Shown here: positions 13,410 to 62,923 of the stretch, in pieces
How the letters are laid out: each line of letters begins with the position of its first letter
Position numbering within the stretch: position 1 is the first letter of the stretch
Source of the DNA: Octopus vulgaris
Taxonomy: Eukaryota
Assembly: GCA_951406725.2 (NCBI GenBank)
Contig: OX597816.1
Coordinates: forward strand, 162,378,001 to 162,442,000
DNA length: 64,000 bases
Direction: 5' to 3'
Notes under the pieces: model-generated
What the model saw: the letters and a program-made list of their open reading frames with translations, nothing else
The model's database searches: none
Told to the model about the DNA's origin: nothing
Made by a program: the position numbers and the translations under genes

Positions 13410-15858
<2,449 letters not shown>

Positions 15859-40029: not shown

Positions 40030-40603
40030 GGGCCAGTCCATAAGATCGACCTCAGTACGCAACTGGTACTTAATTTGTCGATCCCGAAAGGATGAAAGGC
40101 AAAGTCGACCTCGGCGGAATTTGAACTCAGAACGTAACGGTAGCCGAAATACCTATTTCTTTACTGCCTACAAGGGGCTACACACAGAGGAGACAAACAA
40201 GGACAGACAAAGGGATTAAGTCGATTATATCGACCCCAGTGTGTAACTGGTACTTATTTAATCGACCTCGAAAGGATGAAAGGCAAAGTTGACCTCGGCG
40301 GAATTTGAACTCAGAACGTAGCGGCAGACAAAATACCGCTAAGCATTTCGCCCGGGGTGCTAACGTTTCTTATTCTTTATTGCTCACAAGGGGCTAAACA
40401 TAGAGGGGACAAAGAAGGACAGACATAGAAATTAAGTTGATTACATCGACCACAGTGCCTAATTGGCACTTAATTTATCGACCCAGAAAGGATGAAAGGC
40501 AAAGTCGACCCCGGCGGAATTTGAACTCGTAACGTAAATACAGACGAAATAACGCCAAGCATTTCACCCGGCGTCCTAGCGTTTTTGCCAGCTCGCTGCC
40601 TCA
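40030..40603 (-). mobile_element. SINE family A multimer/cluster
   Basis: Three bodies, one joined by the GAAATACCTATTTC junction. Confidence 0.88.
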
Positions 40604-50100: not shown

Positions 50101-50624
50101 CTAACCTTCTTGAAAAGAAGACAAAATCTTTAGAAAGCCCTGGAAATGCTAGTCCTACTTCTGTGAATAAAATGTCACGAGCGAAACAACATTTTTTCGT
50201 TGCGGAAAAATAATCCCCTTCATCAGATAGGGAATACAGACCATGAAATGGTAGATACTGACCTAATAAAGAAGCTAAAAGAGGTATATTTCAGAATGGA
50301 AGAGAACAGCTTTGAAATTTGTAAATCCAAAAGCAGAATCCACTTGATTAAGTCATTGGTACATTTATTCTTTTGTGATAAAAAAAAACCCTGTAAAACG
50401 TAAGTAAATTTAAAAGTTAAAATTAGGGAAGCGTCAGAGTCTCCCTACACCGCTGAATCGATTGTCTTATCAATACATATCGCTTGAAAGAAGTTCTCCG
50501 AAGGTGAAACTCAACAGTTATTATTTCCATTTAATTGCTCATAGGGAGACCGTATTTATACTATGTACCACACTAAAAGTTTATGAGTCAATACCGTGTC
50601 CTATGCATTGTTTTAAGTATATCT

Positions 50625-50908: not shown

Positions 50909-51650
50909 AAGGCGGCGAGCTGGCATAAGTGTTAGCACGTCGGGCGAAATGATTTGCGGTATTTCGTCTGCCGTTACGTTCTGAGTTCAAATTCCGCCGA
51001 GGTCGACTTTGCCTTTCATCCTTTCGGGGTCGATAAATTAAGTACCAGTTACGACTGGGGTCGATGTAATCGACTTAATCTGTTTGTTTATCCTTGGTTG
51101 TCCTCTCTGTGTTTAGCCCCTTGTGGGTAGTAAAGAAAGAGGTATTTCGTCTGCCGTTACGTTCTGAGTTCAAATTCTGCCGAGGTCGACTTTGCCTTTC
51201 ATCCTTTCGGGGTCGATAAATTAAGTACCAGTCACGACTGGGGTCGATGTAATCGACTTAATCTGTTTGTTTATCCTTGTTTGTCCTCTCTGTGTTTAGC
51301 CCCTTGTGGGTAGTAAAGAAAGAGGTATTTCGTCTGCCGTTACGTTCTGAGTTCAAATTCTGCCGAGGTCGACTTTGCCTTTCATCCTTTCGGGGTCGAT
51401 AAATTAAGTACCAGTCACGACTGGGGTCGATGTAATCGACTTAATCTGTTTGTTTATCCTTGTTTGTCCTCTCTGTGTTTAGCCCCTTGTGGGTAGTAAA
51501 GAAAGAGGTATTTCGTCTGCCGTTACGTTCTGAGTTCAAATTCTGCCGAGGTCGACTTTGCCTTTCATCCTTTCGGGGTCGATAAATTAAGTACCAGTTA
51601 CGCACTGGGATCGATGTAATCGACTTAATCCCTTTGTCTGTCCCCTCTAT
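50909..51650 (+). mobile_element. SINE family A tandem tetramer (183-bp period)
   Basis: Units start at 50958, 51141, 51324 and 51507 and are nearly identical; one head. Confidence 0.95.
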
Positions 51651-58519: not shown

Positions 58520-58776
58520 TCTTTTATTCTTTTACTTGTTTCAATCATTTGACTGCGGCCATGCTGGAGCTCGGCCTTTAGTCGAGCAAGTCCACCCCAG
58601 GACTTATACTTTGTAAACCAATAGTTATTCTCTCGGTTACTTTTGCTGAACCGCTATGTTACGGGGATGTAAACACACCAGCATCGGTTTTCAAGCTATG
58701 TTGTGGGGAAAAACACAGATACACAAACACACACACACACACACACATACACACACACACACATATATATATGTAA

Positions 58777-58856
<80 letters not shown>

Positions 58857-59014
58857 CGAGCTTCTTTCAGTTTCCGTCTACCAAATCCAGTCACAAGACT
58901 TTGTTCGGCCCGAGGCTATAGTAGAAGACACTTGCCCAAGGTGTCATGCAGTGAGACTGAACCCGGAACCATGTGGTTGGTAAGCAAGTTGCTTATCACA
59001 CAGCCACTCCTGCG

Positions 59015-59017
<3 letters not shown>
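58520..59017 (-). mobile_element. SINE family B, full length
   Basis: Complete head, internal microsatellite and tail. Confidence 0.9.
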
Positions 59018-59101
<84 letters not shown>

Positions 59102-59115
59102 GTGTATGTGTGTGT

Positions 59116-59402
59116 GTGGAGGCGCAATGGCCAGTGGTTGAGGGTAGCGGACTCGCGGTCGTAGGATCGTGGTTTCGATTCCCAGACCGGGTGTTGTGAG
59201 TGTTTATTGAGTGAAAACAACTGAAAGCTCCTCGAGGCTCCGGCAGGGGGTGGTGGCGAACACTGCTGTACTCTTTATCCACAAATTTCTCTCACTCTTT
59301 CTTCTGTTGGCCTGCTCGCTTAGGCGTCATTTGAAGTCTAATACAATGTGAAGCGTATTGTAACCAGCGATGTGTAGCCTGGTCGGTCACGGTGATCACG
59401 GT

Positions 59403-59405
<3 letters not shown>
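59116..59405 (+). mobile_element. SINE with head H1 + tail T2
   Basis: The first ~185 bp match family C; the 3' part matches fragments at 5398 and 10949. Confidence 0.85.
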
Positions 59406-59472
<67 letters not shown>

Positions 59473-59481
59473 CATACAAAC

Positions 59482-59622
59482 AACGGGCTTCTTTCAGTCT
59501 ACCAAAACCACTCACAAGGCTACAATAGAAGACACTTGCCCAAGGTGCCACGCTGTGGGACTGAACCGGGAGCTATGTGGTTGGTAAGCAAGCTGCTTAT
59601 CATACAGCTACTCCTGCGCCTA
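59482..59622 (-). mobile_element. SINE family B 5' half
   Basis: Matches 58855-59017 with deletions. Confidence 0.8.
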
Positions 59623-60267
59623 TGTAAACATATAGAAGACATTTTATACATATATAGCAAACAACGTCTGTATACTTTCCATACTAACATCCACGAGGGA
59701 AAAGGGAGTATTAAAATAAAGTTTCGAAACATAGATATAAATATAAATAAATATAAATATAAATAAATATTCGAGTAAAAATAGATAAAATATGGAGAAA
59801 TCACATTTAATTGAAGAGTAATCACGGCCCATAAGTCAGAAGTTCAAAGTGCAACAATGCAGTAGACCCACTGGAACTCCAACTTACCATAAAAAAGCTA
59901 ATACGTGAATGAATATATATATTAAATGCATAGGCTTAAAATCGGATTCAGCTATGTTAGAAAAGAAAAAATTTAATGCAAGAGGAGAAAACCGCAAAAC
60001 AACAGAACAATATTGAGAAAAATAGGAAAACAAGCCCTGCGGTGATCGAAACTTAACAGTAACTTGTTCAACAGACTAAATGAAGGGGAAATTGTATGAC
60101 CTTTAGGCCGCAGAAGTGCGACGCCAATTTTGACTTGTCAGGAAATAAATGGTAATTGAATAGAATAATTGCTGCATGTTTATAAATGTGTAGACTAGCT
60201 TTTCCATAGTGCTGTTTCGGTTCTATGAAGTCATCCAAGAACTATATATATATATGCATATTTATGC

Positions 60268-60731: not shown

Positions 60732-60908
60732 CGTAGGAGTGGCTGTGTGGTAAGTACCACATGGTTCCGGGTTCAGTCCCATGCTTGAAACTTTGGACAA
60801 GTATCTTCTGCTATGGTTCCGGGCCGACCAAAGCCTTATGAGTCGATTTGGTAGACAGGAACTGAAATAAGCCCGTCGTATATATATATATATATATATA
60901 TATAAGAC

Positions 60909-60953
<45 letters not shown>

Positions 60954-61170
60954 TGTGCGCGCGCGTGGGTGTGCGTTTATTTGTTTGTCTGTGTTTGTTC
61001 CTCCAACATCGCTTGACAGCCGATGCAGGTGTGTTTACGTCTCCGTTCTCAAAAGAGAACGATAGAATAAGTTCTAGGCTTACAAAGAATAAGTTCTGTG
61101 GTCGATTTGCTCGACTAAAAGCGGTGCTCCAGTATGGCCGCAATTAAATGACTGAAACAAATAAAAGACT
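60732..61170 (+). mobile_element. SINE family B
   Basis: Head GTAGGAGTGGCTGTGTGGTAAG and tail GCGGTGCTCCAGTATGGCCGC. Confidence 0.88.
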
Positions 61171-61206: not shown

Positions 61207-62139
61207 ATTATGTTAAATACCTGAGCTAACTGACTTCACTGTGTTGCAGTATGCTCAAATTTCTGCTTCTGTTATTTAGTCACAAATAATCAGTTCAGAT
61301 CTAACAGATTCATAATCGTATTTTAGGTTTGTCTAACATTACATTACCTAATGTGTCTTTGCCTATTTAAGAAAATATGGTGAGATTCCAAAAAGATTTG
61401 CTTGCCATTTCTAAAGTGTTGTACCGTTGACTAATGTTCTAATTCCTATTTGCGTGATCTATATCGATGTATTACTATTTTATCCGAGTATTTTCTGAGT
61501 GAGATACTAGTGTTTTCGTTGTGTGGTTTAATTCTAGATAAGATCAACAATTGTGAAAATGGAGATAATGGCGATACTTCCGGTTTCCTCTTTAAAGTTT
61601 TATCGTTATTCGGGATTCTTTTGTGCAATATTTCCATTTGTATCTATGTATTTATTTATCTTTGGGGTTGTAGGAAAAGACTACGGGCCAAATTTCCTTT
61701 GCAAACACGCGAGACCCCACGAGATCCTTGAGATCAACGCGGTTTATTTCTAAGACTTTTATACGCTTTATATGTACCCTGGGCGTATTATTTTATCTTC
61801 CAAAATATTTTGGTTCGTGTTTCGCACGGAACCGTCACTTCCAGTAGCTTCCATTTTTGGTCAGTATACCACTTTTCGTTCAGCTCCTTTAATTTTCTAC
61901 GTTTATCATTTATCGTAAGATGGTCTACCCTTTGACCTTTCTGGACTGTTAAAACTTGGAATGTGCTATCCAATACCGTTAGCAATTTAAAGATGGCAGG
62001 GTGACATTTGAGGGATACCTGGCTATTATGTCAAGCGGTTCGTATGATCACGTAAAAGCTAATTTGTTGGCATGTCATTATTGTTCATTATTTACAATAT
62101 TTACATTTGACGGATAATTGTCCTCATCTTGTTTGTTGT

Positions 62140-62187
62140 AAACACAACGTTTCGGCTGATATACCCTCCAGCCTTCATCAGGTGTTT
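62140..62187 (-). ncRNA. Minimal type I hammerhead ribozyme
   Basis: AAACAC-CTGATGA-A-GGCTG-loop-CAGCC-GAAAC-GTT-GTGTTT: stems I and II intact, loopless ACGT stem III. Confidence 0.7.
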
Positions 62188-62264
62188 TGAGGAAATTTCG
62201 AACCTGGGTTCTCATTCCTAAGGCATTTTTCGATCTTCTTCTTCTTCTTCTTCTTCTTCTTCTT

Positions 62265-62346
<82 letters not shown>

Positions 62347-62375
62347 TCACTGCCTGGAATCGAACTCGGCCGTGA

Positions 62376-62465
<90 letters not shown>

Positions 62466-62535
62466 TAATAATAATAATAATAATAACATCGAAAAATACC
62501 TTAGAAATGAGAACCCAGGTTCAAAATTTCCCCAA

Positions 62536-62581
62536 GACACCTGATGAATGCTGGAGGGTATATCAGCCGAAACGTCGTGTT
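62536..62581 (+). ncRNA. Minimal type I hammerhead ribozyme with GUC site
   Basis: GACAC-CTGATGA-A-TGCTG-loop-CAGCC-GAAAC-GTC-GTGTT; predicted cleavage after 62576; first stem II pair is mismatched. Confidence 0.7.
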
Positions 62582-62923
62582 AACAACACACAAGCTGAGG
62601 ACAAATATCTGTCAACTGTAAATAACGTAAATAATGTACATAATTCTTCAGCTCTTAAATGTAGAACTGTCATTAATGTTATTGGTTGCGGTATTTCTGT
62701 TTGTGTTGAAGTTGTTGTTGTGGTTGTTGTTGACCACATTACCATTCTTACACAGAAAAAGCAAGTTAGCACTATTATGCTGCTACTTTAATCTCCATTG
62801 TAAAATATTATATTTGTTTTGTCGAACAAACGAGCGACACATAAAATTTAAATATCTTCTCCAATGAAAATTAGGTATTCCTCAGAAAAATGTTTCCTCC
62901 CTAATTAAATATTTTATAAATGT

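Follow-up and report, generated by a model that had tools for sequence, protein, structure and literature searches.

A palindrome of two truncated Penelope-like element ends in Octopus vulgaris, and a possible tRNA-derived promoter in the pLTR of their family

Autonomous retroelements are assumed to use RNA polymerase II (Pol II). For the Penelope-like elements (PLEs), promoters have been characterized in very few cases, according to the sections of Craig et al. (2021; PMC8557442) that deal with them. The closest described relatives of the element considered here, as far as the relevant parts of these papers go, are PAc of Anolis carolinensis (Frangieh et al., 2024; PMC11167929) and the PLEs treated by Craig et al. 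(2021; PMC8557442), which share with it an open reading frame (ORF) with a reverse transcriptase (RT), followed at the C-terminus by a region of GIY-YIG type (putative in the present element), and a pLTR. PAc and Poseidon-type PLEs also have in common with it a hammerhead that overlaps the ORF start (in PAc, the ORF starts within its hammerhead; PMC11167929), a pair of 3′-end sites that lie within the ORF start, some 30 nt from each other (the “tail”), an adjoining inverted 5′-truncated copy, and the lack of RNA ends at the ribozyme cut in the data these papers report. Such an adjoining copy is described for PLE insertions generally (PMC8557442). The minimal hammerheads of PLE pLTRs, as presented by Cervera and de la Pena (2014; PMC4209133), have the same type-I core, loopless palindromic stem III, and extra base before stem II as the motifs below.

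The locus lies in a 64,000-nt stretch of Octopus vulgaris DNA (assembly GCA_951406725.2, contig OX597816.1, positions 162,378,001 to 162,442,000 of the forward strand), here called the window, whose numbering is used throughout. A sequence-only reading of the window had proposed a palindromic, non-coding SINE/retrozyme hybrid, with a tRNA-derived promoter and a hammerhead on each arm, mobilized by PLE machinery. The palindrome is confirmed as an inverted repeat (62082-62354 and 62368-62640) with 273-nt arms that are 86% complementary. Its features are as follows, the junction being read directly from the letters:

62082..62233, minus strand: left arm, PLE pLTR / N-terminal coding stretch, with ATG at 62215 and without tail
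62141..62186, minus strand: left minimal type-I hammerhead motif, matching the family majority; predicted cut after 62146
62234..62341, minus strand: left spacer, (AAT)16 then (AAG)20 on the element strand
62343..62369, minus strand: 3′ third of a tRNA-Arg-like head, including the B box at 62356-62367; A box lost by 5′ truncation
62368..62371, no strand: head-to-head junction of two truncated copies
62372..62379, plus strand: final bases of the right copy's tRNA-like head, without A or B box
62380..62486, plus strand: (AAT)n spacer of the right copy
62487..62669, plus strand: right arm, PLE pLTR with ORF start (ATG 62507) and 58 open codons
62536..62581, plus strand: right minimal hammerhead motif, within coding sequence; predicted cut after 62576
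62641..62669, plus strand: PLE “tail” of about 30 nt, right arm only, of the type shown in PMC8557442 and PMC11167929

The minus-strand B box that had been placed in the centre is thus there; of the (AAT)n spacers claimed for both arms, the right one stands, while the left is a compound of two repeats. The arms are 89% identical over 158 nt with mismatches at many sites, which upholds the earlier view that this is not a simple fold-back, and a read artefact is rejected as the origin of the palindrome. The left arm ends at the first of the family's two 3′-end clusters (see below) and is 95% identical to the family majority; the right-arm frame from 62507 resembles the N-terminus of the PLE protein P0009 (19/47 identities, E 0.01). 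The palindrome is a back-to-back pair of truncated PLE ends, a single decayed insertion, and an ordinary one for this class of elements, since a tail, an internal RT start, and an inverted upstream piece are all known PLE structure. It is not an intact promoter, because a true B box is present in the left arm only and an A box in neither. A read-through transcript of it folds both hammerheads into one long hairpin (-284 kcal/mol). A search with Rfam models, which had been proposed as a check, matched neither a hammerhead nor a tRNA here at E ≤ 5, and ARAGORN at default settings called nothing at the locus.

Other repeats are present in the window: tandem arrays of 183-227-nt units at 2105-2978, 40157-40584, and 50958-51637 (the last 98% homogeneous) belong to another repeat with a B-box-like motif, and a further SINE-like repeat, different again, lies in both orientations (direct and inverted copies) between microsatellites at 58661-59656 and 60782-61046. 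Outside the window, one of the sampled loci (L032:1204-7886) has tandem intronless open frames that, to judge by motifs, may resemble AMP-binding acyl-CoA ligases.

The assignment of the hammerheads to the PLE type is supported: both combine stem I and a stem II of 5 bp with a stem III that is palindromic and loopless, with cores at 62541-62576 (plus strand, cut triplet GUC) and 62181-62146 (minus strand, cut triplet GUU). The full minimal type-I set (CUGANGA, GAAA core, stems I and II, palindromic stem III, NUH) is found in the left arm and in the family majority. A T replaces the first G of stem II in the right arm, and the closing pair of that stem, highly conserved according to Cervera and de la Pena (2014; PMC4209133), is broken, so that the claim of a hammerhead on each arm holds for the cores and stems but not for this pair. 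The motif does not differ from that of the PLE pLTRs in the same paper; here, however, the two are on opposite strands, which rules out a cis dimer at the palindrome, and the locus is an inverted pair rather than the head-to-tail array, with a hammerhead in every unit, that characterizes non-LTR retrozymes. The hammerhead sits in the first 25 codons of the PLE ORF. Because arm, tail, and ORF are contiguous and in frame, it and the “second B box” of the sequence-only reading (62518-62531) are coding sequence; the latter lacks the C of the TTCRANNC motif, falls in codons 4-9, and is rejected as a promoter element. Lunse and colleagues are said to have worked, in 2017, on minimal hammerheads of PLE pLTRs.

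A 39-nt stretch of the hammerhead has 1268 exact copies in genome G000 and a 38-nt stretch of the tRNA-like head has 603, against 0 for the reversed control of each, so that neither is a chance occurrence. The isolated hammerhead motifs fold no better than shuffles (z 0.22, -1.06, and 0.05), and none of 77 genomic 3′ ends falls at the predicted ribozyme cut. The expectation that the core would be better conserved than its flanks failed among family copies (0.944 vs. 0.941), a comparison which carries no weight either way because copies of one family decay neutrally.

Same-strand tandem hammerhead cores occur at six of 56 other loci. At five loci (L425, L426, L427, L428, and L383) the hammerhead arm, together with a short stretch of ORF start, is repeated head to tail, a retrozyme-like arrangement in which hammerhead dimers could form. 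A pattern search of G000 for other hammerhead families gave 335 matches vs. 24 in the control, most of them variants of this PLE family; among 30 non-family matches, stem II has three or more pairs in 13 (null 0.21) and stem I in 8 (null 0.12). None of these 30 has A and B boxes by a strict pattern, related forms of which missed two of three positive controls. Some loci (L258, L266, L277, L295, L296, L298, and others) represent further minimal hammerhead-like families in G000 with a short stem II, and tblastn found no PLE ORF beside them. An imperfect hammerhead-like motif in the window, at 50226 on the minus strand, is unrelated to this PLE family.

The right arm yielded 2763 candidates in G000, of which 40 were scored and proved 92-95% identical to it; copies of the PLE family number in the thousands, many of them in long inverted repeats. 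At several loci the arm follows an ORF end, and partial tandems give the pLTR, the same sequence preceding and trailing the ORF. The order of the unit is: ORF stop, a 33-nt linker, the tRNA-Arg-like head, (AAT)n, the ORF start with the hammerhead, the tail, and the remaining ORF. Arm, tail, and ORF 5′ end are contiguous in about 12 of 30 loci picked by the ORF 5′ end, and one (L102) has a natural 309-codon open frame running from the hammerhead into the ORF; no natural copy turned up in a scan that asked for at least 90 open codons beginning at the pLTR ATG. By its sequence, then, the palindrome arm is the pLTR plus N-terminal coding sequence of an autonomous PLE. Its continuity with an RT-bearing ORF supports the proposed mobilization by PLE machinery, and the ORF-bearing copies are the autonomous PLEs sharing the hammerhead tail that the sequence-only reading had suggested looking for. 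Two clusters about 30 nt apart (39 and 32 copies) are seen among the 3′ ends of 77 copies, and an inverted piece lies upstream in 57 of 91 sampled copies. The (AAT)n spacer downstream of the head is often broken by other repeats, several with a common 5′ sequence (L145, L153, L164, L185, L198, L051, and L066), and is an apparent target for AAT-tailed retroelements.

The ORF contains an RT domain (PF00078) above the cut-off. Its homologs at E ≤ 1e-20 number 365, with Anolis (P0087, 44%), lamprey, beetle, and echinoderm proteins among them; the closest relatives, found in ENA, are 55-68% identical, and there were none in viral contigs. Pfam gave no match to the C-terminus, a putative GIY-YIG endonuclease, which aligns by eye only with the GIY-YIG-type region of P0009 and P0087; tblastn matched this region in other PLE loci. 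A tree of 89 RT pieces contains no named clade references, and the link to Penelope/Poseidon is similarity to the Anolis protein only.

In complete copies the B box extends into a 73-nt head with both A and B boxes. The tRNA-promoter origin suggested earlier, with a full A- plus B-box head to be looked for, therefore holds for the family, in which this head is fixed, and the B box at the palindrome is a remnant; a tRNA-derived SINE would likewise be expected to begin with such a head, and the family does, while the palindrome, without an A box, does not. The head majority matches a host tRNA-Arg(TCG) at 49 of 73 positions (z 8.2), the best among 30 host tRNA loci representing only six isotypes. 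ARAGORN at default settings and Rfam do not call the family head as a tRNA, relaxed ARAGORN settings give mostly noise on the heads, and no cloverleaf fold was found. The head lies about 33 nt past the stop codon in 30 of 30 loci selected by ORF end and head together. Among 30 loci selected by the ORF alone, 23 have head, (AAT)n, and hammerhead after the stop; of the other seven, four break off before the ORF end and three reach it with no head detected. The linker is weakly similar to the reverse complement of the head start (L062:1687-1760, P 0.08), and can pair with that start.

The positions at which copies begin were taken from the first 91 of the 603 exact 38-nt head matches, a sample requiring intact CpGs and drawn from contigs C1-C2 only. 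Sixty-one begin at -10 to +7 of the head start (11 exactly at +1, 18 at -4 to -1), 18 inside the head (+8 to +28), 7 at -11 to -40, and 5 further upstream. Copies are lost at 9.5% per nt at the head start vs. 1.0% per nt within the head (binomial P 4e-36, with copies treated as independent). Of the 61 head-start copies, 18 have no inverted mate, 19 have one that starts elsewhere, and 7 have an inverted piece further off; in 15 the mate is symmetric, and 2 run into the linker past a small deletion. Read depth also rises at the head start, about 2.5-3-fold past a flat ORF end (RNA reads; run X17 contigs); in run X21 it goes from about 720 to 1970 following 250 flat bases. Exact counts in G000 are 301 for the linker and 603 for the head, figures not directly comparable because the head stretch contains CpGs. 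Combined with the read depth, these counts suggest a share of a quarter to a third for the head copies that extend upstream, above that in the 91-copy sample.

Among copies with ORF 5′ sequence, six of 57 reach the forward head, of which three start there (L391, L430, and L387), two continue into an upstream ORF end, and one starts inside the head; L105 is another such copy starting at the head. Divergence from the majority at non-CpG positions is 4.8% for head-start copies (n = 45) and 5.4% for ORF-linked ones (n = 37), with one weakly different column (P < 0.02). Divergence being equal and a diagnostic split lacking, there is no sign of a separate SINE lineage, and the whole short sequence is contained in the PLE. 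The short copies look like SINEs because they are short, non-coding, and start at the head, and to this extent the SINE part of the earlier proposal is supported; a separate non-coding SINE/retrozyme hybrid is not, since the head is also part of the ORF-bearing PLE. Fourteen of the 91 copies are armless; among those listed, what follows (AAT)n is mostly other repeats or flank.

Pol III terminates at T runs. Two majority sequences of this family, of 2086 and 853 nt (12 copies each, partly overlapping), have no sense-strand run of four or more T's (T4+), compared to 22 and 13 A4 runs; 4.3 T4 runs are expected from base shuffles (P 0.012) and 2.45 from synonymous-codon shuffles (P 0.04). Twelve natural copies have 10 in 21.6 kb, and 49 other PLE ORFs (from 79 PLE loci) have 200 in 66.8 kb, or 3.0/kb, with none of the 16 longer than 1.5 kb free of them. 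LINE-type ORFs in the same genome are also T4-poor (0 in 909 nt, 4 in 2439, 1 in 1164, 0 in 1038, 0 in 792, and 0 in 750), so that the lack of T4 would allow Pol III read-through without being proof of it. A LINE-type RT frame of 346 codons with no T4 run lies in the window itself, at about 13506-14543 on the minus strand.

In three RNA-seq runs of “organism B” (possibly a relative), about 6% of each of which was read for end mapping, there is no RNA end at the head start, nor at the predicted ribozyme cut, where mapping had been proposed, nor any other position at which molecules start or stop in numbers. The element appears in these runs on both strands and mostly as a passenger, 69-76% of placed reads running into unlike sequence. 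The runs speak neither for nor against short Pol III transcripts or cleavage. A pile-up of copy 5′ ends at the head start is insufficient alone to show Pol III.

A possible second case is L303, a tandem 2.79-kb PLE unit on a metagenome contig, with an RT 43% identical to that of the family. Its order (L303:2751-3020) is ORF stop, an A and a B box at a distance of 56 nt, (AAT)3, a hammerhead at the ORF start, and the ORF; it has two T4 runs and no T5 in 2.79 kb. Of 56 control loci (49 + 7), it alone reaches such an A/B score, by a hand-made scoring scheme (P 0.0007 in 3000 shuffles, about 0.04 corrected); Rfam finds no tRNA there. A FastTree phylogeny of the 89 RT pieces (midpoint root) places L303 among headless elements, apart from this family, which suggests, without showing, that its putative head was captured independently.

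The reading preferred here, with a somewhat better than even chance of being right, is that the template RNA of the PLE starts at a captured Pol III promoter, and that the short copies are by-products and not a separate SINE. Transcription by Pol III is likely because it is at the tRNA-derived segment that most copies begin. The start of the transcript would lie near -4 to +2 of the head, and it would run on through the ORF, which is possible because the ORF has no T4 terminator. The PLE protein would nick AT-rich DNA and begin cDNA synthesis internally on the RNA, some 120-130 or 145-170 nt downstream of the ATG; an internal start is reported in vitro for the anole PLE (PMC11167929). A start in the first pLTR would copy back to the RNA 5′ end, giving SINE-like, head-starting copies of 250-400 nt; one in the second pLTR would give ORF-bearing, randomly truncated copies; and inverted pairs like the palindrome at 62082-62640 would arise when extension proceeds from the two target strands. 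The hammerhead would not set copy ends, and would cleave only in tandem or with help from protein. A fuller version is conceivable but on balance doubtful: an autonomous PLE that Pol III transcribes end to end, using a tRNA promoter captured into the pLTR, with a 2.5-kb ORF purged of T-run terminators, SINE-like copies self-made by internal priming, and a design that has arisen at least twice, in this family and in L303. Transcription by Pol III leaves the translation of an uncapped 2.8-kb RNA as an unexplained problem, and the argument made in Kojima (2024; PMC10886601) that autonomous LTR elements must use Pol II counts against it.

The short copies might instead belong to a separate non-autonomous SINE, a tRNA head plus a PLE end module, made by Pol III and mobilized in trans, one copy of which was picked up at the 3′ end of an autonomous PLE itself made by Pol II. 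That most copies are short and head-starting would then be expected, the weak likeness of the linker to an inverted head start (P 0.08) is what a captured head-to-head insertion would leave, and schistosome SMalpha is a precedent for Pol III with a hammerhead (as described in PMC6765202 and PMC8490949). It is nonetheless rather unlikely: short and ORF-linked copies show equal divergence and no diagnostic differences, copies with ORF 5′ sequence start at the head too, the ORF proper lacks T4 runs, and, among the listed cases of the 14 armless copies in the 91, the head was not seen with any other body.

Pol II could also make the RNA, from a promoter within the pLTR or ahead of it, the situation in Drosophila Penelope, with the 5′ end put at the head by a coincidence of start sites or by an RNase P-type cut at the tRNA-like +1. 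Characterized PLEs do show pLTR start sites, with introns and H3K4me3 (in the examples given in PMC8557442), a capped RNA would solve the translation problem, and the 11 ends exactly at +1 would suit RNase P; the 18 at -4 to -1, however, lie upstream of the RNase P site, the head does not fold as a cloverleaf, and the retention of both A and B boxes and the absence of T4 runs are not what Pol II transcription would call for, making this an improbable account. Least credible, with only a slight chance, is an effect of reverse transcription itself, in which a short palindrome at the head start stops the cDNA or folds it back, the tRNA segment being carried along passively. A 5-bp palindrome does straddle +1, the linker can pair with the head start, and a symmetric inverted mate accompanies 15 of the 61 head-start copies; but 44 have none or one starting elsewhere, a stall would be expected at the 3′ base of the structure and not at its loop, and neither the absence of T4 runs nor L303 is accounted for.

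If a captured Pol III promoter is indeed the start of the template RNA, this would be an uncommon trait among mobile elements that code for protein. Such a PLE, with its tRNA-type promoter, would show how an autonomous element can lead directly to SINE-like copies without a separate SINE lineage, and would raise the question of how an uncapped RNA with a predicted ribozyme in its first codons is translated. The palindrome type, the minimal hammerhead, and the inverted truncated pairs are known already; what appears to be new, set against the papers compared, is the tRNA-derived head in the pLTR of a protein-coding PLE. No description of a tRNA promoter in a pLTR was found in the portions of the literature compared, a comparison outside which Repbase, Dfam, and the 1994 octopus SINEs fall. 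Octopus tRNA-derived SINEs (Ohshima and Okada, 1994) have tRNA-derived heads as well, and the short form may equal one of them or a Repbase or Dfam entry.

Compared with PAc and the Poseidon-type PLEs, as portrayed in the parts of those papers used here, a tRNA-derived head with A and B boxes, followed by (AAT)n, opens the pLTR of this family, the copies start at that head, and T4 runs are absent. The animal non-LTR retrozymes (Li, Clavereau, and Pollet, 2026; bioRxiv 10.64898/2026.07.22.740005) are likewise short hammerhead-bearing derivatives of pLTRs, some here too in tandem units; they form tandem arrays, with no tRNA head mentioned in the relevant portion of that preprint, whereas most copies here are solo or inverted. 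The TRIMp3 elements Cassandra, Helenus, and Ajax (Kojima, 2024; PMC10886601) share a small-RNA-derived Pol III promoter in a terminal repeat, but are non-autonomous LTR elements whose autonomous partners are expected, in the account given there, to lack the shared repeat; here the ORF-bearing element carries the head. SMalpha and Sj-alpha of Schistosoma (PMC6765202, PMC8490949) likewise combine a Pol III-type promoter and a type-I hammerhead in one short repeat. In the excerpts drawn on, they are non-coding, tandem, SINE-like units without a link to a PLE ORF, whereas the unit described here belongs to a protein-coding PLE and the putative promoter is kept at the 5′ end of its copies; repeats that unite Pol III and a hammerhead, such as SMalpha, might stem from a PLE with a promoter of the tRNA type.
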